Source of the DNA: a phage
Length of the DNA: 42,708 nucleotides
Direction: 5' to 3' (one strand)
Sequence record: QB031384.1
Positions 1 to 42,708 of the stretch are shown in pieces. The number at the start of each line of letters is the position of its first letter. Within the stretch, counting starts at the first letter, position 1. Both the position numbers and the translations under genes were made by a program. The notes below the pieces were generated by a model. It searched no databases. It saw only the letters and a program-made list of their open reading frames with translations, and had not been told where the DNA came from.

Positions 1-2
1 TA

Positions 3-3000
3 TTACCCCTTATTATGTGCCAGCGATTTTACCTGCTCCTTTAGACGGGCAAGTTCTCTACGCTGGTACAGCATCTCAATGAAGAACATCTGATCAGGTC
101 GAATACCCCAACGACTACCTGCAGGAGTAACTACACTTACATTACCTTCCTCGTCATATTCCACCATCTCAGGGTACTCATCGTAGCACAGGAACCCGTA
201 CTTACATGAAGTAGCTTCAGGCTCCATAAGTCCGTTCGTAACGAGCACGTCACGTACCTGCTGTGCTATTACACCGAAGTGAGTACGAGCAGCATCCCCT
301 TTAGTAGCTAGACTGTCAAGCCACTTAAAGCTAATGATATGTACATCCTCCCAAGCATCTAACAGTGCCGATTCCACTTCCTCTGGAGCTGTTTTAAGAG
401 TACCGTCAGAAGTATTGATAGTGCCTGTAGCAGCGTACACCGTACTCCACCTATTAGATGCGCCTCCTAATGCTACAGAGGAGTCGTTATAAGGTAGCAG
501 GTTGTTTTGAGTGTAGACACCTCCCGTTGCGTACAGGACTGCCCTATTAGGCGTACTGTGATTAGATCCATAGAGTTGCACAATAGCGCCAGAGGCAGCG
601 GAGTTACCTGACCCTCCGCCCAGAATAAGCCGTTGCTGTGCTGGGTTATCAGTAGGCACTGACTTGTAAATCTGACCGTAATCCCCGTCCAGAAGTACTT
701 CAGACCGTACAGCAGGGATTCCGTTATGCCCAGTACCTGTAACACGCAAGGAGTTAACCTGTACGCTCTCATCAAAGACCATAGGCGCTGAAACATGACG
801 TAACCCATCTACCCCCATAGACACAGGTACAGTACGGTTAGGTGCTGCCCCGTATTTAAAGTCGCGAGACACATGCTGCTGCGGACCTACCTTAATACGG
901 TAGCTGTACAGGTCAGTAGGATGACCATCCTGCACGTACCAGCGCTTAGCAGAGTTACCTCCAATGGACCACGGGGATAAGAAATCCTCTCCGCCGAACA
1001 GATAGTACAGCCACCCATCCTTAACGCATACAGAACCTACCCCTACTGAGGAGTTAACTATGTTACCCTGATAAATCTGGTCGGTAACATTAAACCACTG
1101 CACCTCATCTAATGAGCTAGGCCAGTTACGGACGTTAACCTTGCACATAAAGGTGCGTGCGTAATTACCGTTGTAACGGTTATCAGGGGTATCCGCTTCC
1201 CACTCGTTTGCAGCCCGCTCACTCGAGAAGATATACAACTCGTCCCCCACCTTAGCAAAAGGTAGGTTACTGTTATGTACCTTGTTAGGGAAACGTAAGT
1301 ACTCCCAAGTCAAGCCTGAGTTAGTACTACGTGCCAAGGTAGAACCTGCGGAGGTGGCGGATGTTCCCCGAGTAGTAAGATACAACTCCCCGTCGTAATA
1401 GCGTATGCAAGGTTCGGAGGCATCGTTCGCGTACTCCTGAGACACTGTACGACGTTCAAATACTCCGGGATTGTTGTACACATCAGGGAAGTACAGGATA
1501 CCTAAACGTCTAGGAGAGACGTCACCGTTATGATAACCTACTGCAACTGCGTTACCTTCAAGGGCGGTAAAGCTATGGGTTTCAGTTACAGCTAAGTCAG
1601 CGTTAGTAGAGTATGCGATTCCCGGCAGTAAGGTCACTTCCCACTGGCAGTCCCAGAAACGTGTACCAAAGCTCCAAGTAACCCCGGCGTTGGTCAACGT
1701 TGAGGCAGCTGCGTTAGTTAAAGGTACTGTAATAGTATTAGCGTCAACTACGGTACGTACTACAGTATTACCTGAAACACCCGTAACCCCAGAGTTCGAG
1801 AAGTTAATAGTATCTCCTACCTTAAGCCCATGCATAGGAAGTACTACAGTAGCGAAGTTATCCCCAGCCACTGTGCTGATACCCCCAGTAGGCCTACGAG
1901 CATACGGCATTGGGCGCGACCACATCTCCGCCCGTACCATCCTAGCGTCAGATAGATTACGGGTCTCTACTAGCATGTACAAGCGGTTATTAGAAACACC
2001 CATGCTCATACAATGGTAGTTAACACCTGAGGCATAGTTAGGGTGGATAGGAGTAAGCCATTCTGGCATCGTCCACGTCTGACCATCGTCACCTGAACGT
2101 ACCCATGCTACATGCAGGTTCTGTACGCCATGCCGTTCACCTGCCATGAATGGTACGTATATTACATTATCATATACGAAAGACTTATCCTGAGTCCACG
2201 CATTGTAGAACGGGGTGTCTGTAATCTTAGTAAGACCTGCTTCGAAATAACCCTCCGATACATAAGTAAGAGGCTGACCCGCTAAGCGCTCATACTTAAA
2301 CGCGGCATTGCGGAAGCGGCTGAGGTCAGGTAAGGTAGTTACTTTAAAAGTTAAACCTTTACCGTCTATGTACTGATTATGGACCGCCGCTGCCAGCATG
2401 GCTTGAAGTGCTGCCGTATCATCCGTAACTGCATCACCTGCTACTCCCCATCCACGTACGTCAAAGGAATCTCTCCAATGAGGGCGGTAATACTCAGGAT
2501 TAACCTCAGGCCCGTCTATGCGAGTTAAGGCGTTACTCAGTGCAGCTAAACTCTCAGTAGTAGCATAACCTCCTTCCAGAACATCCTCACCTAGTCGCAT
2601 GAATACGTGAGTACCTGCGGGAACAGGGTCGGCTAGTATTACTGTATTGTCCCTAATGGTGTAACTGTACCCCGGAGTTTGACACACCCCGTTAATGTAC
2701 ACTGCTGCCTTTGTGAAGTTAAGGGCAATTCGGAACTCTTTAGTAGGTTCAGTAGTGTTGAAGTACATAGGGTAGCTGGAGGTAACACCGTTAAATGCAC
2801 CTTCGATGTTATCTACCCTGGTACTCACCTCATCCAGCTGTGACTTATTAACTGCATCCGTAGCGTCCTTACCTGCTGCCAGATTAATGATGCGGAAGCC
2901 GTTCATGTTGATAGTACCAAAGAAACCTTCGATACTGCGACCTTCTACCAGTTCCTGAGCTAAGTGCAGGAACTGGGTATTCTGAGTGTCTAAGTTCTCC

Positions 3001-3251
3001 TTAATAAAGGCAGCGCCTTCTGAGAACATGATGTAAAGAAACTCTTTAGCAGTGCGACGTACAATCAGTACAGTGCTCTCTGCATCGAGAGGCTTGTCAA
3101 AGCGGATGCGCGTATCACTGTCCCAAGTAAAATCAAATACCTCTTCACGGTTCACGTACAAGTAAATGTAGGAACGGTCGAGATAGTTGATCTCTACTGG
3201 GACAGTCTGTGCACCAGCTGGTAGAATTTGTTCTTGCCAGCTATAGGCCAT
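3..3251 (-). CDS. Tail fiber / tailspike: N-terminal T7 gp17-like adaptor, central Asp-box (BNR) beta-propeller glycosidase-like region, C-terminal intramolecular chaperone (peptidase S74-like)
   Basis: 1082-aa ORF. N-terminal region carries the tail-fiber motif FRIINLAAGKDATDAVNKSQLD. Central region has Asp-box-like motifs SGDDGQTWTM and STNSGLTWEY. C-terminus has TSDGTLK ... HFGVIAQQVRDVL, typical of autocleaving chaperone domains. Last gene of the structural module. Confidence 0.8.
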   Translation of the reverse strand: MAYSWQEQILPAGAQTVPVEINYLDRSYIYLYVNREEVFDFTWDSDTRIRFDKPLDAESTVLIVRRTAKEFLYIMFSEGAAFIKENLDTQNTQFLHLAQELVEGRSIEGFFGTINMNGFRIINLAAGKDATDAVNKSQLDEVSTRVDNIEGAFNGVTSSYPMYFNTTEPTKEFRIALNFTKAAVYINGVCQTPGYSYTIRDNTVILADPVPAGTHVFMRLGEDVLEGGYATTESLAALSNALTRIDGPEVNPEYYRPHWRDSFDVRGWGVAGDAVTDDTAALQAMLAAAVHNQYIDGKGLTFKVTTLPDLSRFRNAAFKYERLAGQPLTYVSEGYFEAGLTKITDTPFYNAWTQDKSFVYDNVIYVPFMAGERHGVQNLHVAWVRSGDDGQTWTMPEWLTPIHPNYASGVNYHCMSMGVSNNRLYMLVETRNLSDARMVRAEMWSRPMPYARRPTGGISTVAGDNFATVVLPMHGLKVGDTINFSNSGVTGVSGNTVVRTVVDANTITVPLTNAAASTLTNAGVTWSFGTRFWDCQWEVTLLPGIAYSTNADLAVTETHSFTALEGNAVAVGYHNGDVSPRRLGILYFPDVYNNPGVFERRTVSQEYANDASEPCIRYYDGELYLTTRGTSATSAGSTLARSTNSGLTWEYLRFPNKVHNSNLPFAKVGDELYIFSSERAANEWEADTPDNRYNGNYARTFMCKVNVRNWPSSLDEVQWFNVTDQIYQGNIVNSSVGVGSVCVKDGWLYYLFGGEDFLSPWSIGGNSAKRWYVQDGHPTDLYSYRIKVGPQQHVSRDFKYGAAPNRTVPVSMGVDGLRHVSAPMVFDESVQVNSLRVTGTGHNGIPAVRSEVLLDGDYGQIYKSVPTDNPAQQRLILGGGSGNSAASGAIVQLYGSNHSTPNRAVLYATGGVYTQNNLLPYNDSSVALGGASNRWSTVYAATGTINTSDGTLKTAPEEVESALLDAWEDVHIISFKWLDSLATKGDAARTHFGVIAQQVRDVLVTNGLMEPEATSCKYGFLCYDEYPEMVEYDEEGNVSVVTPAGSRWGIRPDQMFFIEMLYQRRELARLKEQVKSLAHNKG

Positions 3252-3253
3252 GT

Positions 3254-6200
3254 TTAATCTCCAAAGTTATTAATGATTGCACGGGTAGGCATGAACTCCT
3301 GCAAGAGCGGGAGACTACGGGACACGTCTTTAAGGTCTGCTTCTCCTGCTGCTACCTTCTGAATCAGTCCTAAGATGTTCATAGCATATCCAGTAGCGGT
3401 CAGGCTATGACGTGGGGACTGGTCGCTGAAGATATCAGTCACAAAGCTGAAGCCGCCTAGTATACTCATAGCTTTAACAGCTTCTGCGATAATCTTACCT
3501 TCTGATTCCTGCTTACCGTCAGCAGCGAAACGAGCTTGAGTAATAAGGTACATCAAAGGGAACTGATACGCAGCGAGATGGGCTAAGCCAATCCAGCCGT
3601 TATCACGGTATTCACGACGTAGAATCTTGTTAGTACCTGCTACAGCAAAGCTACCGTAACCAACTACTACGCGACCTACTGGACTGAACTGTGCAAAGTG
3701 AGAAGTCTCACCTACACGAATCTGCTGGATAACATGGTCCATTAGACGAGTACCAATAATCTCTAGCTGAAACTGTAAGTCATCTGGCAGTAAAGCATCA
3801 ACATCAGGACTAGCAGCAGCTTGCATACGCTTAGCAAGTTCAGGGTCAAGACCCCAACGCTGTAAACGCTTAGTAGCTTCTGCATCTCCGTTCAGCATGA
3901 GCTTAAGCTCATCCATTACGATACCTGCGTTAACGTTAGTCTGAAGACGATGCACCAGACCCATACCGTTTACGTGACGTGCAGCCTGACCGATGTTCTG
4001 AGTGATGTTAAACCAGCGGGAACTACGGGTAAGGTCTAAGTTATCATCAGCGTAAGAGTTCAACCAACGGAACCGAAGTTCCTTCTGAATGCTACCACGC
4101 AGGATAGAATCAAGACGAGCGGATTGACTAGCGTCTTTAGCGACAGCTGTAGCTTCCTTCCACCACTTTTCTTTCTTCATGCTGCGGAGTACTCGGGTCA
4201 TCCCGAACTCTTTCATAGCAAGCGCAGTATCTGCCAGCTGATACAAACCGGAGTTCTTAAGTACGGTGGCGTTGGCAAGGTTACCAGCAGCGCGGAATAT
4301 CTCCGGAACTTCTGAACCCTGAACAGGTGCGCCTACCATGAAGTCGATAGTATCATCTACATGCTTCTGATAACGGTCTGGGTCGCGTACTGTAGACTTA
4401 GCTGTGTTAATCATACCTTCCAGTGCATTCAAGTCAGTTACACCCGCGTATGCAAATGCTACACGACCTGATACACGGTTAGTATAACCTTGCATCTGCT
4501 TAGCTACGTCAGTATCCAGAATATCCGCCATACGCATAGCCTGGCCATTAACTATATACTCCTTCTGCAAGTCAAAGCGGTTACGAGTACGCAGGTTCTT
4601 AACCCGAGAAGTCTGAGTCGCTTCGCGTGCTACGTTAGTAGTAAGGAAGTTACGAATCTGGTCGTCTGCTACGCCTGCTGCACGCATTGCATCAACGATA
4701 ACTTCGTTGCCTACACCGCCCAGAATACTACGCCATGCCGGACCAGTCTGCTTAGACTTACCATCATAGATGCTTTCGAACATCTCACGAGCTACGCGAC
4801 CAGCAACCTCAGTTGTCATATCTGGGTAGATATCACGCAGGGCTTGACGGAACAGGTCGCGGTAGTCAGAAGCCTGACGCGCGCCAGTGTTAATCTGCTG
4901 ACGAATAGCATCGTAACTGTACGAGCGTGGGAAGTAGTAAGGACTACGCTTAATCTGAGAATCCACCTCAACCAGTCCAGACTTCTGGAGATGGTCATAC
5001 CATTTAGTAGCCCACTCAGAGTCTACATACGCCTTAACTAACGGGGCAATATCCTGAGGAGGGGTAGGAATCTCACGACCTGCTGTCTCCGCTGAGTATG
5101 CTTGGTCAAGGTATTGTGCAAGTTTAGACTCACGCTCACGACGAGCAGCTTTGAACTTGTTACGTTGCAAGAACGCATCCAGTAAACCAATACCATCTGC
5201 ACGCAGGGAATCAATAATGGCCTTCTCAACTACAGAGGCTGCACCATCAAGCTCTAACTGTAGGTTACGCTTATAGTCAGCTACAGAAGGACGACGTGCA
5301 CCTACTGCTGCGCCGTCAGCTACTAGCAGGTCTGCTAGGTCTTTAGAGCCTTCAGCAATGTTATCGTACAGGCTGAAGCTGCGAGCGAACGCCTTCTTAA
5401 AGCTATCTAACTGCTTAACTGCACCGTTAGCCGTATCGGCGAACTCACCATACTCAGATAATGCCTGAGACTTATAACGGGTAACACCACGCTCTTTAGC
5501 AGCTACATCCAGAAGCGCATCATAGGAATCAAGCACAGAGTTCAAGGCATTACCTTCTACCTTAGCACCTAATGCTTTAAGGATAGTTTGAGCAATACGA
5601 CGAATAGCACTAGCACCTTCTACTTCAGTATTACGCAGTAGCTTAACCAGACCTTTATCATCTGCAAGACCTGCAAGTAACTCTTCGTTACTGCTCAGGC
5701 TGTAGCGCATACGCGCATCAAGATTAGGACTAGTAAGAAGCTGCTCACGAATACGAGTAAGGTTAGTGGTAGCTTCCAATGCTTCTGGAGTACCAGACTG
5801 AATAGCGCGTACAGTAGCAGCATGTATAAGCTCATGCACAGCAATTTTAGCAGTATTAGAATCCAGGCCATTGATAGCATCTCCGTAGGTCTTCCAAGTA
5901 CGTGGGCCTTTCTTAGAGGCACGCAGGGTGACCGCATTGTTAACTAGGTTATAACGGCTAGAGATGTTAGTGTCACCTACGAGGTGTACAGGCACATCAT
6001 CTATGATACCGTCCAGTGAACGCAGCAATGCCTTCTGACCCTCATCCAGTACATCGCGTGCTAACAGGTTCTTAGTAACGTCACTTGCGCGTACACTTAC
6101 ACGAGCCTGCTGACCTTTCAGGATACGAATAGGTTTCTTAAGCGGGGTAGATTCTAAGGAATCAATCTTAGTAGTAAAGGCATCCGAGTCTGGAGCTGTA

Positions 6201-7024
6201 CGCTTAGTAGGAGCAGCTTCATCGAACTGCATTTCTGTACGAGTACTGCCACGAGTAGTACCAGTACTTGCATCTACAGCGTTACTAGCTGTGGTATCTG
6301 CTGCATCTTCCGTTGCACCTGCAACAGTACGCTGAACAGCACGGCTTGCATTAACTGCTTTGCGGATATCGAATAACTGGTCTACGCCTGATACTGCAGC
6401 TACTAATGCAGTGATACCTTCGGACTGTCCCAGCTGGTCCTGCGCATAGTACGCTGAACCTACGTCTGCTGCACGGATAGCTGAACGAACTGCTAAGCCT
6501 GCGCGACCTGCTACACCTGCGGCTGCAAACGGAGCTAACAGGGTAGGGGCGTCACCTAGAATAGAACCAGCGATACCAGACACGATGTTAGCGCTAGCAG
6601 TAGTATCACGCTCGCGCTGCTCCAGCATCTGTTCAATGCGGTAGTTATAATCATCCAAACTAACCGAAGTGCGTAAGTAATCAATTTCTTCCTGATTAGG
6701 GGTGTAAATTCTAGTCCGTGCATCTTTCTGGAGCATCTCCGTAGAGTTGAAGTCCAGGTCAGTTGGGAAGTCTGGAGAGAAAGCTTTGCGTAGACCTGCT
6801 GCGATAATACTGTTACCTGCACCAGCTATAAAGGACTGACCTGCAGTGATAGCAGCAGTACGAGCCTGGGCAGTATTAGATGCACGCTCAAGAGCGGAAG
6901 CACCTAAGTCTGTTGCATCACCCCAATTAACTGTAGCCTGAGGTTGTTGCACTTCAATGAGAGTATCTTGTTTAGCAGAATCCTTTATACCGGGACTAGC
7001 ATCTTGATTCAGGAACTGAGCCAT
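3254..7024 (-). CDS. Internal virion protein D-like (large ejection/core protein, T7 gp16 analogue)
   Basis: 1256-aa ORF between the gp15-like gene and the tail fiber. Size and position match T7/phiKMV synteny. No catalytic motif recognised by eye. Confidence 0.6.
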   Translation of the reverse strand: MAQFLNQDASPGIKDSAKQDTLIEVQQPQATVNWGDATDLGASALERASNTAQARTAAITAGQSFIAGAGNSIIAAGLRKAFSPDFPTDLDFNSTEMLQKDARTRIYTPNQEEIDYLRTSVSLDDYNYRIEQMLEQRERDTTASANIVSGIAGSILGDAPTLLAPFAAAGVAGRAGLAVRSAIRAADVGSAYYAQDQLGQSEGITALVAAVSGVDQLFDIRKAVNASRAVQRTVAGATEDAADTTASNAVDASTGTTRGSTRTEMQFDEAAPTKRTAPDSDAFTTKIDSLESTPLKKPIRILKGQQARVSVRASDVTKNLLARDVLDEGQKALLRSLDGIIDDVPVHLVGDTNISSRYNLVNNAVTLRASKKGPRTWKTYGDAINGLDSNTAKIAVHELIHAATVRAIQSGTPEALEATTNLTRIREQLLTSPNLDARMRYSLSSNEELLAGLADDKGLVKLLRNTEVEGASAIRRIAQTILKALGAKVEGNALNSVLDSYDALLDVAAKERGVTRYKSQALSEYGEFADTANGAVKQLDSFKKAFARSFSLYDNIAEGSKDLADLLVADGAAVGARRPSVADYKRNLQLELDGAASVVEKAIIDSLRADGIGLLDAFLQRNKFKAARRERESKLAQYLDQAYSAETAGREIPTPPQDIAPLVKAYVDSEWATKWYDHLQKSGLVEVDSQIKRSPYYFPRSYSYDAIRQQINTGARQASDYRDLFRQALRDIYPDMTTEVAGRVAREMFESIYDGKSKQTGPAWRSILGGVGNEVIVDAMRAAGVADDQIRNFLTTNVAREATQTSRVKNLRTRNRFDLQKEYIVNGQAMRMADILDTDVAKQMQGYTNRVSGRVAFAYAGVTDLNALEGMINTAKSTVRDPDRYQKHVDDTIDFMVGAPVQGSEVPEIFRAAGNLANATVLKNSGLYQLADTALAMKEFGMTRVLRSMKKEKWWKEATAVAKDASQSARLDSILRGSIQKELRFRWLNSYADDNLDLTRSSRWFNITQNIGQAARHVNGMGLVHRLQTNVNAGIVMDELKLMLNGDAEATKRLQRWGLDPELAKRMQAAASPDVDALLPDDLQFQLEIIGTRLMDHVIQQIRVGETSHFAQFSPVGRVVVGYGSFAVAGTNKILRREYRDNGWIGLAHLAAYQFPLMYLITQARFAADGKQESEGKIIAEAVKAMSILGGFSFVTDIFSDQSPRHSLTATGYAMNILGLIQKVAAGEADLKDVSRSLPLLQEFMPTRAIINNFGD

Positions 7025-7105
7025 TTATAAATCCTTAAAGGGTTGTGATAAAGAAGATAATAGAGCAGGGATACTGGAGGTGTATCCCGGCGCTGGAAGG
7101 GTTTT

Positions 7106-7134
7106 ATTATATCATGGATTTCATGATTCGTCAA
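7106..7134 (-). promoter_or_regulatory. Sigma70-like promoter (TTGACG - 17 bp - TGaTATAAT, extended -10) upstream of the gp16-like gene; copy A of an inverted duplicated element
   Basis: Minus-strand reading gives TTGACG (7129-7134), a 17-nt spacer, then TGATATAAT with -10 at 7106-7111. It sits in the 130-bp gap between gp15-like and gp16-like genes. About 40 bp is near-identical to 26624-26680 on the opposite strand. Confidence 0.4.
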
Positions 7135-7154
7135 ACCCTTTCTAAATATTTACA

Positions 7155-9851
7155 TTACTGACCAAGACGGACAGCTTGAACCGCTTGCCAATACTGAATC
7201 TCCAGGTACTGTTTACGCTTAGGTTGGGCTTGCTTATAAGCAGGCTGTTTCTTAAGTGTATCCAGCCCTACTAAAGACTGCGCTTGGAACGGGTCCTGCT
7301 GGTAGCCGTATGTCGCAGAGGAGCCTTGACCTTGTACTGATTTCAAGGTACGAAGAGCATCTGCTACAGGGGCGGAACTGCCGTTACCACCGTGATAGTT
7401 CAAGTCTACCAGAAGCTTCAGCCCAGAAGGGTCCTGAGTAATACCTTGCAGCTGTTTCTTAACCGCAGGGATGTACTGCTTCTCGAGAGAACCTTTCAAT
7501 ACCTCAATACCTTGTTCAGGAGTCAGGGATTCAGGAACTGGTAAGCCAGAGTTATCATGCAGACCAAAGCCTACGCTACCTTTCTTCTTAGTAGCACGGA
7601 AGCCTTCGAACTGAGCAGTAGTAGCTACGATGTCTGAGAAGAGGGCAGGTTGAATCCCAACACTGTTCTTGCCATTAACGTTCAGACTAATAGTACGTCC
7701 ATTATCAGCATCCCAGAATGTAGCAGGGCGAGAACCTACAGCCTTCTGACCAATCTCAATACCACCAGCTAGTGCTTCATCGTACCCAGCCTGAGCTAGC
7801 TGCTGAACCTGCTGCACGTCGATACTTACGTTCTGGTAGATACCGTCAGTAGTAAGGACAGAAGCAGTTAAGTTTTGACCCTGCGCACCAGCAGTACCTG
7901 CCTGCACGATTACACGGGAAACTTTAGAAGGGTCAGCTATGGCATCAACACTAGTTTGAATCTGCTGAGCAAGTGCAGTACGGAACTGTTCGGCATCCCC
8001 ACGATAAGAACCTTGAAGGTCTGCGAGTGTAGTACCAGCGGGAAGATAAACGTGACGCGGCTTACCTGATACTTCAACCTGCAACTGACGGGACTGGATA
8101 CGTCCCTTAAGAAGCGTGTTGATATCCTCCGGGGACTTACCTACCAGAAGTTCAGGGTTGCTACGGTACAACTGTTTATACTCTTCCTGTAATGCTACAC
8201 GTCCCTCCTGACGCTGCTGGTCCGCAGTATCACCAAAGCTAAACCAGTTAGCAGTAGACTCAGCATCAATAGCTGCTTCCGGAGGATTAGCTGGGAGGTT
8301 ATCATAGCGTCCGCTTGCACGGTTACGGGCTAAACGACGGATATCATCCAGAATGATATTACTAGCGTTAGACTGGCCCTGAGCAGCAGCACGTTGAATA
8401 ATACCACGGTACTCTTCAGGTACGTCACCGCTCAGTGCAATCTTATCTAAGTCACCGCCAGAGATGTACTGCTGTACCCAACCTGCGATAGCTGCGTTGT
8501 TCTCTGCACTAACTGTACCGTCCTCTGCGAGAGAGTCCAGCGAGGCTAAGGTGTTAGCCATTAAGCGTGAAGTACGCTGGTTAGCCTTCTGGATAAGTCC
8601 TGCATCTTTAGAGGTCTTACCGTACTGTAGAAGCGTAGCATTACCTACCGGAGTATCCGGGAACTGGTCCAAGATGAATTTCTGCGCTTTCTCTACATCC
8701 CCCTCGAACTGACCGGCAAGTACAGACGTAGGCTGACGATTATTAATCGCTATCTGCAACGCATACTTATCAGCTGCATCATCACGAAGCTTAGTAGCAC
8801 TGTTCCAGATATCAAGCTGAGTACCTGTGCTTAATACACCACTGCGCCCATACTGCTGTACTTGGGAGCGGATATTCTGTAAAGCTACTTCCTGCTGTTC
8901 CGGGGATGCACTACGGAGAGCTTCAAGCTGGTCAGCAATATCAAAGCGGACCTGTGCTTCCATCCGGGAGCCTGCACGCTTAAACTCAGTACGCAGTGCC
9001 TTAACGACATCTACAGAGTTAACACCGAGCTGCTCAGTTGCAATACGTTGAATACGGTCAATGACCAGAGGGTCAGTGGCATTCTGTGCAATAGATACAA
9101 GATAGTCCTGTACACGTGCAAACTTACTACTTTTATCGAGGTGCCCCGCACCTAGAATGGCACTCATACCAGATACTACAGCAGCGTCACCGGCAGGGAT
9201 ATTCCCGCTTTGGATATGGTTAAAGAACTCCTGACCGGAGGCACTTAAGTTCTGGTCTAATGCAGCATCTGCTCGCTGATTAGCAACTTTAGCGCGTCCC
9301 TCTTGGAAGGCGGCATAGTTAGCTGCGCTAGCTTGCTGCACCTGTGTAAGAGTAGCCGCAGCAGCCTGGCGGTCCAGCTGAGGTAGCCACTTGGATACTT
9401 GCTCAGAGAACTTAGCATTACCCTGTTGCTCTTGTAAACGAAACTCCTCATCAGACAAGCCTTGCGCTGCTGCGGAGTTAGCACGCTGAAGAGCGCCTAT
9501 ACGCCAGTCAGCAAGCTCACGACTTACTGCTGCGGAGGTGTAGCCTTGTGTATAAGAATCACGAAGGAATATGTTCTGCTGCTTAACCTTCTCATCTCTA
9601 GTAGCTTCTAAGTCGACAGCACCTTGAGCATCAAGCGCACCCTGTACAGCTGCCTTAGCGCCGTATACCTGGGCACGCTCAGAGAATCCTTCTACTGTTC
9701 CTTGAAGGAACTGACCAATAGCCTGACGCCTAGCTAATGCTGAGTCATCTACTGCTACTGCACCTACCGCCCCCTGTACTGCCTCAGTAGCCTGAAGCTG
9801 AACACCTTGAAGCTGCAAGCCTTGACGTTGTACACTTTGAGTAATAGGCAC
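7155..9851 (-). CDS. Internal virion protein C-like (T7 gp15 analogue)
   Basis: 898-aa ORF, Ala/Gln-rich and predicted helical, placed between gp14-like and gp16-like genes. Call is by synteny. Confidence 0.6.
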   Translation of the reverse strand: MPITQSVQRQGLQLQGVQLQATEAVQGAVGAVAVDDSALARRQAIGQFLQGTVEGFSERAQVYGAKAAVQGALDAQGAVDLEATRDEKVKQQNIFLRDSYTQGYTSAAVSRELADWRIGALQRANSAAAQGLSDEEFRLQEQQGNAKFSEQVSKWLPQLDRQAAAATLTQVQQASAANYAAFQEGRAKVANQRADAALDQNLSASGQEFFNHIQSGNIPAGDAAVVSGMSAILGAGHLDKSSKFARVQDYLVSIAQNATDPLVIDRIQRIATEQLGVNSVDVVKALRTEFKRAGSRMEAQVRFDIADQLEALRSASPEQQEVALQNIRSQVQQYGRSGVLSTGTQLDIWNSATKLRDDAADKYALQIAINNRQPTSVLAGQFEGDVEKAQKFILDQFPDTPVGNATLLQYGKTSKDAGLIQKANQRTSRLMANTLASLDSLAEDGTVSAENNAAIAGWVQQYISGGDLDKIALSGDVPEEYRGIIQRAAAQGQSNASNIILDDIRRLARNRASGRYDNLPANPPEAAIDAESTANWFSFGDTADQQRQEGRVALQEEYKQLYRSNPELLVGKSPEDINTLLKGRIQSRQLQVEVSGKPRHVYLPAGTTLADLQGSYRGDAEQFRTALAQQIQTSVDAIADPSKVSRVIVQAGTAGAQGQNLTASVLTTDGIYQNVSIDVQQVQQLAQAGYDEALAGGIEIGQKAVGSRPATFWDADNGRTISLNVNGKNSVGIQPALFSDIVATTAQFEGFRATKKKGSVGFGLHDNSGLPVPESLTPEQGIEVLKGSLEKQYIPAVKKQLQGITQDPSGLKLLVDLNYHGGNGSSAPVADALRTLKSVQGQGSSATYGYQQDPFQAQSLVGLDTLKKQPAYKQAQPKRKQYLEIQYWQAVQAVRLGQ

Positions 9852-9852
9852 T

Positions 9853-10404
9853 TTAGCCTCCTAAATAATTCTTCCACGCAGTTATAGTTGAACCTACTCG
9901 GCTTCCCCAGCTGTCGTAATCGAAGTCACCTAATACGCCATCAGCTGCTGCGGAGCCTGTAGAGGAGCCTACAGAGCCTAAGGCTGCGTTAAATATAATA
10001 TCCTGGCCTGACTGCTGAGAAGTATTGGCACGGGCATTATCAACCGCAGCTGTTGCTTGTTGGAAGAAACCTTCCTCACGAGCTGCTTGGTTTGCACGTA
10101 CACTTGCTTCAGCACGGCTGTTTACTACGTTGACTGTTGCGACTGCATCACGTACGGATGCACCTATAGTATCCGATGCCGCAGCTTGAAGGCCTACCTG
10201 CGATAAGGCTTGTTGCTTCTGCTGCCGCACGTTAAATAAGGCAGAGTTAGTAGCAGTACGGGACTGACTTCTCTGGAGGTTAATCTGACTAATGCCTTTA
10301 GCAAGCTGTGCCTGCGTAGCTTTAGATTGAGCTACATTAGCTTTAATCTGAGAGCCCGCCCCGAACAGCGATAGAGCGGCTTGAGCTGCTGCGAACTGCC
10401 ACAT
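9853..10404 (-). CDS. Internal virion protein B-like (T7 gp14 analogue)
   Basis: 183-aa ORF directly after tail tubular protein B. Call is by synteny and size. Confidence 0.5.
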   Translation of the reverse strand: MWQFAAAQAALSLFGAGSQIKANVAQSKATQAQLAKGISQINLQRSQSRTATNSALFNVRQQKQQALSQVGLQAAASDTIGASVRDAVATVNVVNSRAEASVRANQAAREEGFFQQATAAVDNARANTSQQSGQDIIFNAALGSVGSSTGSAAADGVLGDFDYDSWGSRVGSTITAWKNYLGG

Positions 10405-10417
10405 GGGCGGTCTCCTT

Positions 10418-13350: not shown

Positions 13351-13389
13351 CGTTTAGTCTCCTTTGTATTTTAAGCTCTGGGATAGAAC

Positions 13390-13420: not shown

Positions 13421-13424
13421 CAGT

Positions 13425-30234: not shown

Positions 30235-30287
30235 TGCCTTACCTCCTAGTTAGTTGACACTGCGCCCCTTGCGAGACGCAGTAGCTA

Positions 30288-31574: not shown

Positions 31575-32322
31575 GTATTTGGCTGCATTGAGCAGCCTTT
31601 GGGTCTACGTTCAGATGTCTATCATGCACGGGCACGAAGGGCTTAAGTTGCTTAGTAATTGAAACCGTGCCGTTCCAACCTGCACGGTCATCGTCTAACA
31701 TACAGATTACTGGCTTACCTTCTTTAATAAGTTGGGCCTTAAGCCCAAGCGGAAGCTTCGTCCCAAGCAAAGCTATTGCCTGAGCAGTCTGTGAAGAATA
31801 CTTCTCCAAGACCTGCTGAACCTTCAGCGCTGAAAGGTAGTCCTCGGTCAGTATCGTTATGGTTCCAGTATTCCCAAGCTGCACCCACTGTAATGACTTC
31901 CCTAGCATCACCCACTTCGGATGCTGGTACTCGTGCAGTGCTCTTGCTATGTAACTTCCCGTTGATAATTTCCACACTAACCTCTTGTATTGTTCTGAGT
32001 AATAAACGTCGCCGACCATATCAGGCCAGATGCCTTTCTGTATTAAGAATCCGTATAGGAACTGCTGAAGCCCTACGTCCAGTTCAGGCAGCGGCTTCAG
32101 GTCCTGAGGGGCGGCTAACTCACGCCCCAGCACTTCTGGTACTGCTAATTGAGCGTACTGCTTACGCTCTGAATGATATGACTTGCATCTGAAGCAAGAG
32201 CAAGTCCACTTATCTGGCTCGTTCCTGATTACTGCTGCTGCTGTTTTACCGCAGCATCGGAATCTTTCAGTTTGGCCAACAGCCAATCTCTGTGCTGCTC
32301 TAAGCCATTGCTCGTTAGCCAT
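31552..32322 (-). CDS. DNA primase (zinc-ribbon + TOPRIM)
   Basis: 256-aa ORF with an N-terminal Cys cluster (CCGKT ... CSCFRC) and TOPRIM acidic motifs (LTEDYLSA, MLDDDRAG). Confidence 0.75.
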   Translation of the reverse strand: MANEQWLRAAQRLAVGQTERFRCCGKTAAAVIRNEPDKWTCSCFRCKSYHSERKQYAQLAVPEVLGRELAAPQDLKPLPELDVGLQQFLYGFLIQKGIWPDMVGDVYYSEQYKRLVWKLSTGSYIARALHEYQHPKWVMLGKSLQWVQLGNTGTITILTEDYLSALKVQQVLEKYSSQTAQAIALLGTKLPLGLKAQLIKEGKPVICMLDDDRAGWNGTVSITKQLKPFVPVHDRHLNVDPKAAQCSQILGALDGL

Positions 32323-34312: not shown

Positions 34313-34405
34313 CTTAACTCCTTAGTGGTTTTATTAAAGCCCTCCGCAGAAGGCTTTGTAAAACTACTTTAGTTTCTTTCATCTCAGACCCACTGAATTA
34401 TCCGT

Positions 34406-34528
34406 GGACGGGAGGAACCGCTCGAGCCTGTTCTATCTACCCTAGGCTCTCAGAAGGGCAATCACTTAGCGTTGTTGATTAACGTCCTGCTATGAATCCA
34501 ACTATACTCCTATTTTATTTTGTGTCAA
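34406..34528 (-). promoter_or_regulatory. Promoter-leader cassette R2: sigma70-like promoter (TTGACA - 16 bp - TATAGT) plus conserved structured leader
   Basis: -35 at 34523-34528 and -10 at 34501-34506. Leader has a hairpin (AATCA/TGATT), GCCCTTCTGA, a GAGCC/GGCTC stem around GGGTAGATA, and GAGCGGTTCCTCCCGT. Confidence 0.55.
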
Positions 34529-35543: not shown

Positions 35544-35882
35544 TTACGCATTATGTGCATTCTCCTCACAATACTGCAACGCAAAGCGCAGCAATTCATT
35601 ATACAGCGAAGTAGTCAGAATCCCTTCATTGTAGTACTCAGCCTCATGCTTACGGAGAGTATCCTTAGCAGCGCATGCAACCTTCAAGCTGCACCCTGTA
35701 GCCTGCATAAGGCCGCGTACAAGCTGTGTATCCTTATAAGCTTTCTTAGCATGCCATTTAACAAAACTTACTGCTGCACCTACAACAACCATACCACCCA
35801 TCACGACAAAGCCAATTGCACTAGACATATCATATACCTTTAATTCTGTACCCTCGCAGCGAGGATACTTAACTAAAGACAT
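35544..35882 (-). CDS. Hypothetical membrane protein (112 aa)
   Basis: First ORF after promoter-leader cassette R3. Contains one clear hydrophobic helix (GFVVMGGMVVVGAAVSFV). Confidence 0.45.
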   Translation of the reverse strand: MSLVKYPRCEGTELKVYDMSSAIGFVVMGGMVVVGAAVSFVKWHAKKAYKDTQLVRGLMQATGCSLKVACAAKDTLRKHEAEYYNEGILTTSLYNELLRFALQYCEENAHNA

Positions 35883-35942
35883 CTTAGCGAAGCTCTTGTC
35901 TCTTCAATCTAGTGAGCTTCTCATCTATTCCCTCTGTATAAC

Positions 35943-36080
35943 CCGAGGACGCTAGGTAACGCTCAGAACCTGTTTATCTACCCCGATTCTTCAGGAGGGC
36001 AGCGGCTTTATGTTATCCGCTAACGTCTTGCTTATGTCTTGCTATGTGATGAAGTATACGCTTCAAAACAGGTAAGTCAA
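35943..36080 (-). promoter_or_regulatory. Promoter-leader cassette R3: sigma70-like promoter (TTGACT - 16 bp - TATACT) plus conserved structured leader
   Basis: -35 at 36075-36080 and -10 at 36053-36058. Leader has a hairpin (AGCGG/CCGCT), GCCCTCCTGAA, an AGAAUC/GGUUCU stem (one G-U pair) around GGGTAGATA, and a diverged GAGCG...CCUC segment. Confidence 0.55.
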
Positions 36081-37093: not shown

Positions 37094-37187
37094 AGAGATA
37101 CAGTAGAGATACAGTACTGAACAAGGTGCTGAACAAAATAGGCAAAAGCATCTCAGAGCATCTCCCTGTGCTCGACAAAATAGGCAA
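37094..37187. repeat. Cluster of short direct repeats in the non-coding putative terminal region
   Basis: agagatacagt is tandemly duplicated (37094-37115); ctgaacaa occurs twice; acaaaataggcaa occurs twice 42 bp apart; agcatctc occurs twice. Confidence 0.5.
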
Positions 37188-37354
37188 GACTAACCTCTCC
37201 CGCACCCTCAACAGAGAGCGCAGAGACAGCCAGCCAAGCCAGGTCCTGCCAGAGATACGCAGAGGCACCCCCTACCCTCCCTCCAGAAGATTCCCAGAGG
37301 CCGCCCCTACGGGGGGAACAGCGCGTTGGTCGGGTGAGGGAGGGCCTCGTGTGA

Positions 37355-37391
37355 GTATAATAAATTCAAGGTGCTTGTTTACACGAGCACC
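37355..37391 (-). terminator. Putative rho-independent terminator after the last gene (tailspike)
   Basis: On the minus strand: stem GGUGCU/AGCACC (37370-37375 paired with 37386-37391), 10-nt loop, then UUGAAUUUAUUAU. Stem is short and the U-tract is interrupted. Confidence 0.4.
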
Positions 37392-37416
37392 CTGATGCTT
37401 CTCAGGTACATCCCCT

Positions 37417-39171: not shown

Positions 39172-39735
39172 TTATTTAGGCATAGCAGCTACTGCTGCTT
39201 GCATAGATTTAAATTCGTTGCCAATAGCTTTGGCTTCCCACTTACGGCGCTCCCAGAGCCCGTAGCAGACCTTATTAGGTTTACCCTTTACCAACATACT
39301 ACAGTCGTACTTAACCCCGTTACGGGTGATATAGCGCCAGCTAAGTACAGCCTTAGCTGCACCTTTAGTATCGCCTTGCATTAGCTTTCGCTTCGCGGTA
39401 CTGTTCTTGAAACCTGAGATACCGGTGTTATAGGTCATGTCCAAAGCACCAAGAATCTGTACGTCCGTAAGGGACATAGGAAGCCCGTCAAGAGCCTTAG
39501 CATGCTCCCCAGCTGATTGTATCAGTTGTTGCTTACACTGCGTCAGAGTGGCTGTATCGCCCATCCTAACGCCCTTAGTCTCACCATAGCAGATAGTAGG
39601 TACTCCGGCGGAGTCCTTGTATGCCTTAAGGGAGAGACCTTCGTTATGCTGTATCACCATAGCGATACTGGCGCCCAGCAGGGAAGTCCCTGCCAGCGCC
39701 GCCTTAACCTTGTTGCTTATGCTCATAGTATTCAA
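39172..39735 (-). CDS. Endolysin, lysozyme family (GH24-like) with N-terminal signal or signal-anchor-release segment
   Basis: 187-aa ORF with catalytic-region pattern EGLSLKAYKDSAGVPTICYGET (E ... D ... T) preceded by the weakly hydrophobic N-terminus KVKAALAGTSLLGASIAMVI. Confidence 0.8.
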   Translation of the reverse strand: MNTMSISNKVKAALAGTSLLGASIAMVIQHNEGLSLKAYKDSAGVPTICYGETKGVRMGDTATLTQCKQQLIQSAGEHAKALDGLPMSLTDVQILGALDMTYNTGISGFKNSTAKRKLMQGDTKGAAKAVLSWRYITRNGVKYDCSMLVKGKPNKVCYGLWERRKWEAKAIGNEFKSMQAAVAAMPK

Positions 39736-39952
39736 GGCCCTTCTCTAAGGCTCGCTCCTTGAGCTTGTACTCTTTGTGCCTGTAGTATGCGTTCCATGCA
39801 AAGGTCAGTACAGCTACAACCGTACCGACTATGAAGGAGATTGTCCCCCAGTTCCAAGACATTATGTTTGCCATCCAACCGCCGCCCATAGTAGCGACTG
39901 ACACATTCGTTCCTACACGGGTGATAGTTTCCCCGTTAATTGGTAGACTCAT
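39704..39952 (-). CDS. Putative holin (82 aa from SD-supported internal ATG; the ORF track extends it to 40027)
   Basis: Hydrophobic helix WGTISFIVGTVVAVLTFAW followed by a charged C-terminus, immediately upstream of the endolysin. The ATG at 39952 has AAGGA 9 nt upstream. Confidence 0.4.
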   Translation of the reverse strand: MSLPINGETITRVGTNVSVATMGGGWMANIMSWNWGTISFIVGTVVAVLTFAWNAYYRHKEYKLKERALEKGLEYYEHKQQG

Positions 39953-40361
39953 CGCTTTCGTCCTTAGTTCTTCCGAGTTTGCGGAACAACAGGACAATGA
40001 TGAGGATTGCGATTGGAACCGCTGCACCTGCCAGTCCTGCTAGAATTATGCTAGTACCGTCATTGTTAACAACCTGTACTCGCTCCGTGTTAATGGTTCC
40101 AGTAGTAACTGAACTGGACTGCTTCTTGGTAGAAGTATCCAGCGTGCCTACGTTAGAATCTTTAATTGATGTTTCATTGTCCGTGCTGGAGTCGGACTTG
40201 CCATTAAGGCCTACAGTTTGTTTCGTATTCTCTGCGCCAGCTTGCACGGACAGGTCTGGCTTAGAGCCAATAAGACCTGTCAATGCAGAGGTCGCTGAGC
40301 AGCCTACCAAACACCCTGTAAGAGCCGTAGCGAGGACTAACCCAGCGACCTTAGCCCGCAT
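39936..40361 (-). CDS. Lipoprotein with C-terminal transmembrane helix (unimolecular-spanin-like)
   Basis: 141-aa ORF. N-terminal signal with lipobox LTGC, a Ser/Thr-rich middle, then C-terminal TMD IILAGLAGAAVPIAILIIVLLF and a charged tail. Confidence 0.5.
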   Translation of the reverse strand: MRAKVAGLVLATALTGCLVGCSATSALTGLIGSKPDLSVQAGAENTKQTVGLNGKSDSSTDNETSIKDSNVGTLDTSTKKQSSSVTTGTINTERVQVVNNDGTSIILAGLAGAAVPIAILIIVLLFRKLGRTKDESDESTN

Positions 40362-40543
40362 CAGGCTGCTGCTTTAACGGCAGCGATAGCCGCTTCCAGA
40401 GCCGCTACTTTAGCATCGTATGCAGCGCCTACAGAGTTCACATCCAGAGGCTGGGTCATAATCTTATAAACCTCCTTAGCGTGAATAGTAAGTTGACGCT
40501 GAAGCTCAATCTTCTGAGCGGGGGTAGCTTTTGCAATTGCCAT
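40361..40543 (-). CDS. Hypothetical protein (60 aa, Ala-rich)
   Basis: ORF-track ORF between terminase large subunit and the lysis genes. No motif recognised. Confidence 0.4.
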   Translation of the reverse strand: MAIAKATPAQKIELQRQLTIHAKEVYKIMTQPLDVNSVGAAYDAKVAALEAAIAAVKAAA

Positions 40544-40569: not shown

Positions 40570-42393
40570 TTAATATTTGATGCGTGCGCTCGCACCACGC
40601 TTGCGCTTGTGCACCATTGACTTCTTCCAGCCCATAGGGTTATCCATAAAGTCTAACGCCTTCTTAAGCTGGTCCTTCTCTGCTGCCTGCTTCTCATCCT
40701 CTACGAGGTGCGAGTTCAGTTCAGCTACGAGCATACTAATAGCGTCTGCCCGGTCATCCTTCGCTAGGCTACCACGGTCATAAGTAATACCAGATAACTG
40801 CTGGAACGCACTGTAAAGCCAGCGCTTATCACGACTGTACTGCATACAGTATTTGATATCGTCTTCCAGCGCCCTAGCGTGCACTACAAAGCGGTGACGA
40901 CGCGTAACAGGGGAGATAGTATCAATGATACGTTTCTCCTTCTGGGACGTGTTATAACCGCCCCTGACACCAATGCCGGGCATACTACGCTCACGCAGAC
41001 GGTTTATAATCAAAGATTCTACCGTGCCGTGACCCATGTTACGCTCGACAAAGATGTCAGTAATACCCATCTCGACCGCTAGGTCAATCAAGGTATCTAC
41101 GTTCTCTGTGCTAAGCCCACCCTGCAACCCGCCTACAGTAAAGAGGTGGATGTAAGAGCTAACTGCACCACCGGCTGCAAAGGATACTTCATCACCACCG
41201 TTACCAGCAGGGTCAAGTACCAGCAGCTTGTGCTTGTAGTTGAGCATATGCTCCCCTATGTGGCTCGGCACATACAGTTGCTGACCTCGAATACCTTCGT
41301 GTTCCTCTCCGTAGAGATAGCGCTTATCAGCCATGTAGTTCAGTCGGTCAGGTGCTGCATCATGCGAGCCAGTGTAAATCAAAGCGTCACTGAGTTTAAT
41401 CTTGGTACGTAGTGCATCGGACATGGTTGTGTCGAGCATATACTGTAATTGGAACCCTTCTGGGCCGAAGTCCAGTTCCTTCTCAATCAAGGCTTCCTCG
41501 TTATAACGTCCTTTATCGGTGCATTCACCTAACGTACCATCCAACCCAAAGCCTGTTTCTTTATACCCTGCGTCGATGAGGGTTTGAATATACGGGGCAA
41601 GGGTTTCTCCGTAACGCTCGCGCATCTCCTGATTAGGAATACGTCCAGGCCATACACGTACCTCGAAGCCACGACCCGGCAGTGTCTTGTAGATACTCTC
41701 CTTAGTCTGAGGAGTACCGAGGTACAGGGTATCACCGTGCGTACAGATAGCTGCAAAGTCTTTAGAGATGTTCAGTAACTGCTCACGCATTGTCTGCGTC
41801 AGGCCGTTCTTGGTTGTTTCAATATCGTCAGGAATCAGGAGGTCAGCACGTTTACCCTGAAGCTGCGCGGTAATACCAACACAAGCAATAGAGGCTGACT
41901 TATCCAGAGGTTTCAAATCGCAGTTAATGTCGTACCCTTCATAAGAGGTACGGTCACCACGGGTAGGGTCTGCTTTCAGGTAACAGAGCAGAGGCCACGT
42001 CTCAATCATACGAATGACAAGCGTAGCTACTTCGGATGCCTGCTTCTCACCGCCAGAGACGATAAGAATACGTGTACGCTGGTCTTGAATAAGCCGCCAT
42101 ACAGCGTACAGGGCAGCCAACGTGGATTTTGCTTCGCCTCGTTGTGCAGCTACCATGCGCTTACGCGGACCGTGCTGCATGAAGTCAGCAATATCACGCT
42201 GCATCTCCGTCAGGTCAAAGCCTAGGAACTTCATACCTAAGTATGCAAACTCCCGGAAGTCCTTCAGGGTAACAGCCATCATCAGTGCTACTTCCTCGCG
42301 CTGGTCCTTAGGGATAGTGCGGGGACTGTCATTCATTACTGTAGTGCGTTGAGATATTAGTTTCAATCGGTTCAGTGTAGTAGGACTAATCAC
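40570..42393 (-). CDS. Terminase large subunit (T7 gp19-like)
   Basis: 607-aa ORF (T7 gp19 is about 586 aa) with ATPase-like N-terminal half and nuclease-like C-terminal half, directly after the small-subunit gene. Confidence 0.85.
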   Translation of the reverse strand: MISPTTLNRLKLISQRTTVMNDSPRTIPKDQREEVALMMAVTLKDFREFAYLGMKFLGFDLTEMQRDIADFMQHGPRKRMVAAQRGEAKSTLAALYAVWRLIQDQRTRILIVSGGEKQASEVATLVIRMIETWPLLCYLKADPTRGDRTSYEGYDINCDLKPLDKSASIACVGITAQLQGKRADLLIPDDIETTKNGLTQTMREQLLNISKDFAAICTHGDTLYLGTPQTKESIYKTLPGRGFEVRVWPGRIPNQEMRERYGETLAPYIQTLIDAGYKETGFGLDGTLGECTDKGRYNEEALIEKELDFGPEGFQLQYMLDTTMSDALRTKIKLSDALIYTGSHDAAPDRLNYMADKRYLYGEEHEGIRGQQLYVPSHIGEHMLNYKHKLLVLDPAGNGGDEVSFAAGGAVSSYIHLFTVGGLQGGLSTENVDTLIDLAVEMGITDIFVERNMGHGTVESLIINRLRERSMPGIGVRGGYNTSQKEKRIIDTISPVTRRHRFVVHARALEDDIKYCMQYSRDKRWLYSAFQQLSGITYDRGSLAKDDRADAISMLVAELNSHLVEDEKQAAEKDQLKKALDFMDNPMGWKKSMVHKRKRGASARIKY

Positions 42394-42408
42394 CGCATAT
42401 TCCTTTTA

Positions 42409-42708
42409 TTATAAGATTCCAGCTAATGGGTCATCAGGGTCTGCACCAGCTTTCGCCAGTAGCCCCTGCGCCCGTGCCTTACGTTTCTCTGCTAACTCAT
42501 CTTGGAACTCATCACGTAGCTCCTGCATCTCCGTAGAGTCTGCATCTGCTGTAACGTCGTTGTCCTTAAGGAATTTAGCGATTACTGATTTGTCAGCAGC
42601 AGGCATAGGAAGCTCTTCATCCTGAGCCTGCTTTAATTCTGAGATGAGTACCTCGGTGAACATCTTGTGAAGTTCAGCGAGGCGACTCTTTGTAGCCGCC
42701 TTAGCCAT
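42409..42708 (-). CDS. Terminase small subunit-like protein (T7 gp18 analogue)
   Basis: 99-aa acidic, helical ORF immediately upstream of the large subunit. Its ATG is the last 3 nt of the window, so its SD would lie across the window junction. Confidence 0.55.
   Translation of the reverse strand: MAKAATKSRLAELHKMFTEVLISELKQAQDEELPMPAADKSVIAKFLKDNDVTADADSTEMQELRDEFQDELAEKRKARAQGLLAKAGADPDDPLAGIL

Follow-up and report, generated by a model that had tools for sequence, protein, structure and literature searches.

Sequence record QB031384.1 as the probable unit-length genome of a KP34-like Escherichia coli podophage, opened at an arbitrary point

The sequence record QB031384.1, a stretch of phage DNA of 42,708 nucleotides (nt) that was analysed at its full length and is referred to here as the window, very probably represents one unit-length genome of a lytic Escherichia coli podophage of the subfamily Slopekvirinae. 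This genome would have been opened at an arbitrary point, with its virion ends and its expression by two RNA polymerases (RNAPs) as proposed below. Every module is present and collinear with the relatives of the phage. The main finding is an ordinary one: a new member of the KP34/phiKMV-type coliphages. An initial annotation had described the window as a complete, circularly permuted phiKMV-type genome with the RNAP gene at the early/late boundary, a description that is retained here in its outline and modified in several of its terms.

Results and discussion

The two ends of the window are adjacent in nature

According to the list of open reading frames (ORFs), all the large ORFs of the window are on the minus strand. 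The first letters on this strand, from base 42708, are ATGGCTAAG; they provide the ATG of the terminase small subunit gene (terS), an ORF of 99 amino acids (aa). The last letters of the strand are ...AAGGGGTAA TA, that is, the stop codon of the gene for a 1082-aa protein followed by two nucleotides. Joining the window ends gives TAA, 2 nt, and ATG, as the initial annotation had pointed out, and this arrangement is confirmed by two gap-free alignments. An artificial junction made of 300 nt from each end aligned over 600 of 600 nt, with 96.5% identity, to a contiguous segment of Escherichia phage vB_EcoP_P64441 (P64441; PQ847473.1, positions 37494 to 36895), in which the annotated endo-N-acetylneuraminidase gene and terS are likewise 2 nt apart. 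A Logan contig of 2052 nt (SRR14598731), which was found by an exact look-up of the terS protein and encodes an identical terS, also crosses the junction, with 98.9% identity and no gaps; the junction itself is identical and an endosialidase gene ends 2 nt before terS. The exact 32-nt junction pattern had no match among the IMG/VR viral contigs.

The gaps between neighbouring genes of the late cluster are 2, 1, 13, -1, 8, 9, 3, and 9 nt. The 2-nt gap at the junction fits this series, and the tight spacing previously claimed for it therefore holds. At the opposite end of the window is AAGGGG, the Shine-Dalgarno sequence of terS. Taken together, these observations show that the window ends lie next to each other in nature, and the record is a reverse complement whose opening at the terS start codon is a matter of convenience and does not mark real DNA ends. 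The stop codon that had been assigned to a tail fiber gene is located where it was said to be, but the label does not stand: the 1082-aa protein is an endosialidase with a T7-type N-terminal tail-fibre adaptor.

Probable position of the virion ends

A non-coding stretch of 490 nt extends from the stop codon of the terminal tailspike gene (37417) to the first early gene, 5.4 kb from the window end. In a search against deposited phages, positions 37395-37298 of this stretch matched the annotated direct terminal repeat (DTR) regions of KP34, KpV475, KPPK108.1, and AttikonH1. Base 1 of KP34 (CCCTCACCCTGAACGCGCC...CCCCCATAGGGGGTGCCT) aligns with window position 37340 (CCCTCACCCGACCAACGCGC...CCCCCCGTAGGGGCGGCCT), and the annotated DTR starts of KP34, AttikonH1, and KPPK108.1 map within 2 nt of one another. 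The DTRs of the relatives measure 216-267 bp, with 216 bp in KP34 and 267 bp in phiKDA1, where the repeat follows the tailspike gene in the same layout. The GC content of the segment 37100-37340 is 57%, compared with 48% genome-wide. Judging from these homologies, a linear virion molecule is most likely, with fixed ends and with a DTR of approximately 220-270 bp. On the minus strand, the left boundary of this repeat would fall near 37340, in the interval that separates the tailspike gene from the first early gene. As the assembly holds one copy of the DTR, the packaged DNA would measure approximately 42.9-43.0 kb. The record is thus probably a rotated, DTR-collapsed circle, and the virion DNA is probably not physically permuted. 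The term "circularly permuted" remains appropriate for the record and not for the virion, since homology to annotated DTRs puts a fixed left end near 37340.

Headful packaging from a pac-type site, which would produce virion DNA that is truly circularly permuted and terminally redundant, without fixed ends, has to be considered because assemblies of such phages likewise close into circles. This possibility appears slim, however. The terminase large subunit (TerL) is of the T7 type (PF22530) and shares 74% identity with its counterpart in KP34, a phage with annotated fixed DTRs of 216 bp. The window also retains a homologue of the KP34 DTR start together with the conserved block ahead of the DTR, and terminal repeats are annotated in phiKMV, LUZ19, KP34, phiKDA1, AttikonH1, and KPPK108.1 alike. 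The preferred reading, with fixed ends and a DTR, has a practical consequence for annotation: the record is complete, its start should be moved to near 37340 by rotation and reverse complementation, and the packaged DNA should carry a second copy of the DTR.

Several features of this region were observed alongside. The block of 55 nt that directly precedes the right-hand copy of the predicted DTR is kept in P64441 and through to the Klebsiella Drulisviruses; it contains a sigma70-like match (TAAACA-16-TATACT) found in the promoter scan, and its position recalls phiOR and the concatemer-processing signals of T7. The predicted DTR zone (37100-37320) contains short direct repeats, namely GTAGGGG(C/G)(G/T)GCCTCTG twice (37310 and 37275), TTGCCTATTTTGT twice (37187 and 37145), and CTGTATCTCT twice (approximately 37115, and 37103), which recall the repeat arrays in T7 ends. 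A repeat boundary apparently located 55 nt further upstream in the Kpp-9 record was rejected, as the "repeat" of that record is an assembly overlap ending in a poly-G run.

Classification and completeness

With regard to kinship, the window is collinear with P64441 (42,960 bp) round the whole circle, in rotated form and on the same strand, with approximately 37.6 of the 42.7 kb aligned. The aligned blocks are mostly 97-99% identical at the nucleotide level, and the intergenomic similarity is approximately 86% in a BLAST-based estimate, which is under the species threshold of 95% and over the genus threshold of 70% set by the ICTV. The two genomes differ by discrete cassettes: some small genes, HNH and methyltransferase genes, a portion of the nozzle gene, the gene for the terminal tailspike, and those that open the early region. 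The next relative is PAS7, with approximately 80% nucleotide identity over about half of the window (megablast); its rough similarity of approximately 40% (80% over about 50%), which comes from megablast only and may in truth be somewhat higher, is under the 70% genus threshold for Cepavirus. At the protein level, 30 of the 46 window proteins matched KP34 by tblastn in strictly the same order, with a mean identity of 55%, once the window had been rotated to start at the predicted left end. The initial annotation had proposed a whole-genome alignment against phiKMV-like references as a check, and the outcome is collinearity with P64441 in nucleotides and with KP34 in proteins.

The hallmark proteins rank the reference phages in the order KP34 (60-76% aa identity), phiKMV (33-48%), and T7 (26-33%). 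The RNAP is 60% identical to that of KP34, 33% over its full length to that of phiKMV, and 26% to that of T7; the corresponding values for TerL are 74%, 48%, and 33%. The major capsid protein is 76% identical to that of KP34 and 38% to that of phiKMV, and its match to T7 is not significant (E=0.003). P64441, PAS7, and KP34 are classified in the Slopekvirinae, and phiKMV belongs to the Krylovirinae. Among the nucleotide matches listed there were neither Pseudomonas phages nor Studiervirinae records, and the identifiable top matches were Slopekvirinae.

The genes are arranged in the order early genes, DNA metabolism, RNAP, HNH gene and two small ORFs, structural genes, terS and terL, lysis genes, and tailspike gene. 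This order, which had been read from the sequence at the outset, is corroborated by Pfam, PHROG, and synteny with KP34. The single-strand order of early, DNA-metabolism, RNAP, structural, terminase, and lysis genes is that of phiKMV-like phages in the broad sense, and the name "phiKMV-like" is used in this loose manner in the KP34 literature, where it covers KP34-like phages (PMC6834552, PMC4411677). The hallmark identities of 33-48% place the phage outside the Krylovirinae and Phikmvvirus, and the RNAP position and the T7 identities place it outside the Studiervirinae. Its nearest relatives, its synteny with KP34, and the tailspike gene after the lysis cassette are those of the Slopekvirinae; KP34 gp57, phiKDA1 gp62, and Buco gp52 are right-end tailspikes at a place equivalent to that of the window tailspike. 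From these comparisons the phage is assigned to the E. coli clade of the Slopekvirinae as a new species-level member and is phiKMV-like only broadly, so that the designation "phiKMV-type" is kept in its broad sense and dropped with respect to the subfamily of phiKMV itself. It should be filed in the Slopekvirinae beside P64441, and not with the T7 or phiKMV species.

A T7-like phage of the Studiervirinae in which the RNAP gene has merely been relocated would share with the window the T7-type RNAP, portal, nozzle, and terminase as well as the N-terminal domain of T7 gp17. Such a phage is a very improbable explanation, given the low identity of the RNAP to that of T7, the lack of a significant capsid match, the gene order with the lysis cassette after the terminase as in KP34 and phiKMV and not as in T7, and the composition of the nucleotide matches listed. 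The RNAP gene extends from 38% to 44% of the genome length and immediately precedes the structural genes, an arrangement shared with phiKMV (gp26, likewise of 816 aa) and KP34 (gp37), whereas T7 gene 1 is located at 8-15%; the order is therefore of the phiKMV type and not of the T7 type, as had been claimed.

The completeness of the genome and the arbitrary nature of the window ends, both put forward in the initial annotation, are upheld by the junction tests and by the full-circle collinearity with P64441. That the window ends are true physical ends, of a linear genome starting at terS and finishing with the endosialidase gene, is effectively refuted: its sole support is that the linear record starts exactly at a gene start, an exact-ATG start is typical of deliberate re-orientation, the ends are contiguous with an identical junction sequence in P64441 and an independent read contig, they carry no non-coding or repeated DNA, terS would be parted from its own ribosome-binding site, the DTR-homologous sequence is internal at about 37340, and all the relatives with annotated ends have them after the terminal tailspike gene.

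The Listeria and Salmonella labels of some related records deserve comment. OR848265, OR846985, OR848392, and others ("Listeria phage LM 4-14-1 / 4-11-1"), as well as OR850875 ("Salmonella phage S.Kent 1-2-1"), are wastewater contigs marked UNVERIFIED that are approximately 82% identical to the window phage. Given this identity to an enterobacterial podophage, their host labels are probably wrong.

Position of the RNAP gene and proposed transcription scheme

The RNAP gene follows the exonuclease and endonuclease VII genes, and three small ORFs lie between it and the portal gene. The size of 816 aa and the late position that had been reported for the RNAP are confirmed, and the early/late boundary at which it had been placed is better described as a middle/late boundary. 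A scan for sigma70-like promoters was scored by the match to the consensus, sites with at least 10 of 12 matching positions being considered strong. All six strong sites are intergenic, although intergenic DNA makes up only approximately 6% of the window, and five of them are on the gene strand. Four of these five are in the early and middle regions upstream of the RNAP gene (Table 1), and one is in the late cluster (7134). Ahead of the first gene there is a weaker site, at 37034, with an extended -10 element.

On this basis, host sigma70 RNAP would start after DNA entry at approximately 37034, 36080, 34528, 30234, and 27638 and would proceed rightwards across the replication genes as far as the RNAP gene. 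The phage RNAP would then drive the structural, packaging, lysis, and tailspike genes, and the T7-type terminase would cut concatemers at the DTR. The LUZ19 transcriptome and KP34 biochemistry agree with such a two-polymerase scheme (PMC10914365, PMC6834552). The need for host RNAP to transcribe the early and middle genes, which the initial annotation had deduced, is consistent both with these published data and with the intergenic, consensus-level sigma70-like sites upstream of the RNAP gene. In KP34, a strong phage promoter is located close to the left end, and the early genes may therefore also be read by the phage RNAP at a later stage.

Several observations weigh against this scheme and against the proposed virion ends. 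The total of 23 sigma70-like sites is not enriched over shuffled sequences (17.4 +/- 4.5), nor are the strong ones (5 compared with 3.8 +/- 1.7), and only the exclusively intergenic placement of the latter is unusual. No phage-RNAP promoter was identified in the window with the KP34 motif, a look-alike from P64441, or a de novo search. The KP34 RNAP promoter, T(A/G)ATGTTACAGGAGTA, has no equivalent in the window, where one match with 3 mismatches is at chance level, and the de novo search for 14-mers in the intergenic regions gave no multi-copy phage-promoter candidate. In addition, the HNH cassette occupies the spot, a few bases past the RNAP stop codon, at which the main phage promoter is found in KP34 and LUZ19. 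As for the ends, the virion termini are inferred by homology only, by which the right boundary of the DTR could not be placed.

Two promoter candidates were rejected. An 11-nt core of the KP34 promoter occurs once upstream of the RNAP gene (21183-21193) and is not conserved in P64441 or PAS7. A KP34-like motif right after the RNAP stop codon of P64441 (TTAAATGTACTACAGGTATC) is not repeated elsewhere in P64441 and does not occur in the window. The HNH cassette (17893-18581), directly after the RNAP stop codon, replaces approximately 26 nt of P64441 that loosely resemble the KP34 RNAP promoter. The strong site of the late cluster is a near-consensus TTGACG-17-TATAAT (7106-7134) in a gap of 130 nt between two internal virion protein genes, where PAS7 has a similar gap. 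A repeat of 25 nt, TA(T/A)(T/A)A(T/A)AGTGCGAG(A/T)TTTTACTAC, is found just before the first early gene (36925-36949) and again after it (36108-36132), upstream of the promoter at 36080; its role may be that of an operator or of a processing signal.

A structured leader RNA repeated three times

Three of the strong sigma70-like promoters are each followed by a structured leader of approximately 110-150 nt, and this unit of promoter and leader occurs three times in the window. A covariance model built from the three window copies recovered three copies, and no more, in each of the window, P64441, and PAS7, in corresponding positions and with 100-121 bits, and three further copies were found on two IMG/VR contigs. 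Five hairpins were predicted from a MAFFT alignment of eight copies, in which 93.9% of the cells pair, compared with 74.2 +/- 2.1% in shuffles (0 of 500 reached the observed value). Compensatory changes are present in 16 of the 25 pairs, and pairing dropped to 28-44% in a control in which the partners were slid against each other. One hairpin has an invariant loop, GGGUAGAUA, and all 6 of its 6 pairs covary. The common core comprises CUGA, the hairpin with this invariant loop, GAG, a second hairpin, and a YCCAC...GUGGG hairpin. The minimum free energy of single copies is not below that of shuffles (z -0.2 to +1.2), so the case for the structure rests on covariation and not on stability. On this evidence, there is good support for the existence of the structure.

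The model was broadened with an alignment that included weak matches in KP34 and phiKMV, in whose early leaders weaker single copies are located (KP34 1100-1208 and phiKMV 1387-1505). KP34 thus has one weak copy, as against three strong copies in the window phage. Outside the training set, the broadened model matched Buco at 684-792, just before gp1 (E ~9e-5), and gave a weak match in phiKDA1 (E 0.016). It also matched LUZ19 at 1398-1516, between the sigma70 promoters and gp0.1, in a sequence that is nearly identical to the phiKMV training sequence. It had no match in T7, and the S.Kent 1-2-1 genome (OR850875) is without the leader RNA. In a model-fitted alignment of 16 sequences, which leans towards the model, 225 of 225 cells pair and 12 of 15 pairs show compensatory changes.

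A search of Rfam at gathering scores yielded nothing across the entire window, and a search with one leader copy at E values up to 5 yielded nothing either; no description of the leader RNA was found in the literature searched. Two non-coding RNA candidates derived from 5' untranslated regions have been reported in LUZ19. A hammerhead-like reading of CUGA...GA was rejected, as this core is not kept in all the copies. A 32-mer of KP34 that was once predicted as a promoter, and which resembles part of the leader RNA, was set aside as a distinct small hairpin that occurs after genes 1 and 4.

The leader RNA could be an undescribed cis-acting element of phiKMV-like phages; in its boldest form, in which the RNA modifies the RNAP and acts as a put-like processive antiterminator, this proposal is speculative and rather unlikely to be correct. 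If true, a put-like leader RNA would let host RNAP cross the long early and middle region to the late-positioned RNAP gene. Milder and purely conjectural readings are a site for processing by RNase III or RNase E and for stabilisation, or a decoy for a host factor. In an equally conjectural ranking, a cis-acting element for processing or stability or for host-RNAP elongation would come first, and a put-like antiterminator second. The leader RNA is the only element of the window that may be new, and it could raise the question of how phages with a late RNAP gene manage the host polymerase.

Receptor-binding proteins

The 1082-aa protein comprises an N-terminal adaptor of the T7/HRP29-gp44 type, a full set of endosialidase domains, and an S74 chaperone, according to Pfam and structure matches. 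Its best structural relatives are PDB 4HIZ and the K1F endosialidase endoNF, its catalytic part being closest to 4HIZ. The terminal tailspike matches HK620 tailspike structures with E values of approximately 1e-129. It is 77-78% identical in aa to the tailspikes of K1ind1-3, which are phages isolated on O18:K1:H7, and is a swapped cassette relative to P64441, in which it has no DNA match. The HK620 tailspike cleaves the O18A1 O-antigen. The phage has two receptor-destroying tail proteins, and it is a reasonable inference from these matches that the pairing would correspond to a host with a K1 capsule and O18. The window adds a K1-capsule phage with an endosialidase and an HK620-type tailspike on a KP34-like backbone; such a pairing would suit invasive O18:K1 E. 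coli and could be of interest for phage therapy.

Coordinates and further genes

The features of the window are collected in Table 1.

Table 1. Features of the window, with their positions and the basis of their assignment.
Feature	Position	Strand	Basis and remarks
Terminase small subunit (terS)	42409..42708	-	PF11123 DNA_Packaging_2, E=2.6e-19; phrog_891
Far side of junction	1..5	-	TAA (5..3) of the 1082-aa ORF 3..3251, then spacer nt 2..1; direct sequence reading
Terminase large subunit, T7 type	40570..42393	-	PF22530; 74% aa to KP34 TerL
Lysis cassette	39172..40543	-	PHROG matches; collinear with KP34 gp53-56
Small conserved ORF (lysis)	40361..40543	-	
Rz-like spanin	39936..40361	-	
Holin	~39704..40027	-	
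Endolysin	39172..39735	-	
Terminal tailspike, HK620 type, 581 aa	37417..39162	-	phrog_20900; last gene before predicted right end
Conserved unique block, 55 nt	37341..37395	-	just upstream of predicted right-hand DTR copy; kept in P64441, KP34, AttikonH1, KPPK108.1
Predicted DTR, one copy in window	37100..37340	-	left virion end predicted at 37340 (CCCTCACCC...); right boundary approximate
Sigma70-like promoter TTGACT-16-TATACT	36053..36080	-	intergenic; promoter scan
Leader RNA copy 1	35875..36046	-	follows 36053..36080 promoter
Sigma70-like promoter TTGACA-16-TATAGT	34501..34528	-	intergenic; promoter scan
Leader RNA copy 2	34334..34494	-	follows 34501..34528 promoter
DNA-metabolism block	21953..32322	-	tblastn collinearity with KP34 at 40-75% aa; P64441 annotation
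Primase	31552..32322	-	
Helicase	30288..31574	-	
Sigma70-like promoter ATGACA-16-TAAAAT	30207..30234	-	between helicase and DNA polymerase genes; without leader element
DNA polymerase, first ORF	28795..29946	-	
DNA polymerase, second ORF	27651..28838	-	
Sigma70-like promoter TTGACA-16-TAGAAT	27611..27638	-	after DNA polymerase gene
Leader RNA copy 3	27418..27604	-	follows 27611..27638 promoter
Phosphoesterase	24944..25924	-	
Exonuclease	22542..23462	-	
Endonuclease VII	21953..22378	-	
Single-subunit RNAP, 816 aa	18582..21032	-	PF00940 (E=3e-92) and PF14700; closes DNA-metabolism block
HNH endonuclease cassette	17925..18572	-	PF13392, phrog_99; insertion relative to P64441
Structural module	3..17134	-	Pfam; collinear with KP34 gp40-49 at 46-76% aa
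Portal	15578..17134	-	
Scaffold	14744..15568	-	
Major capsid	13628..14620	-	
Tail tubular A	12796..13350	-	
Nozzle/tubular B	10418..12796	-	
Internal virion protein	9853..10404	-	
Internal virion protein	7155..9851	-	
Internal virion protein	3254..7024	-	
Endosialidase with tail-fibre adaptor, 1082 aa	3..3251	-	

The family-A DNA polymerase (27651-29946) is encoded by two ORFs that overlap by 8 nt (28795-28802, mapped to P64441); the same arrangement is found in P64441 and PAS7, whereas KP34 has a single ORF. Either a genuine split of the gene or a programmed frameshift could account for this. Two paralogous genes for pentapeptide-repeat proteins, with a periodicity of 15 nt, are found in the middle region (26019-26591) and in the early region (32814-33401), and both are also present in P64441; their products may be DNA mimics or anti-host factors. 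No tRNAs were found in the window.

Comparison with known phages

P64441 (PQ847473.1, unclassified Slopekvirinae) shares with the window phage the endosialidase, the 2-nt junction with terS, and the three leader RNA copies. It differs in its terminal tailspike and its first early genes, and it has a methyltransferase gene and two HNH genes that are not in the window. Conversely, an additional HNH gene is found in the window between the RNAP gene and the structural genes, and the small genes near 21.5 kb and 26.7 kb are not the same. The type phage of Cepavirus, vB_EcoP_PAS7 (PMC11522302), has the same gene order, the split DNA polymerase, three leader RNAs at equivalent places, and a terminal tailspike. 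In contrast, PAS7 carries a short tail fibre (402 aa) in place of an endosialidase, and its tailspike is O103-specific.

Klebsiella phage KP34, a Drulisvirus, exhibits full protein synteny with the window phage, with the RNAP gene before the structural genes and the succession of terminase, lysis, terminal tailspike, and DTR. Nevertheless, there is no useful nucleotide similarity beyond a few genes, and the DNA polymerase of KP34 is unsplit. The Pseudomonas phages phiKMV and LUZ19, of the Krylovirinae, resemble the window phage in the 816-aa RNAP closing the DNA-metabolism block, the single-strand gene arrangement, the DTRs, and the left-end sigma70 promoters (PMC10914365). They differ in their hallmark proteins (33-48% aa), in the absence of a terminal tailspike after the lysis cassette, and in having host promoters annotated only at the left end.

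With regard to the tail proteins, the likeness to K1F lies in the use of an endosialidase as a tail protein, with the K1F-type domain order including the C-terminal S74 chaperone, and the likeness to K1-5 lies in the two different receptor-destroying tail proteins that are encoded. K1F is T7-like and K1-5 is SP6-like; both are K1-capsule phages of the T7 supergroup, and each has an early RNAP gene. The window phage differs from both in its KP34-like backbone.

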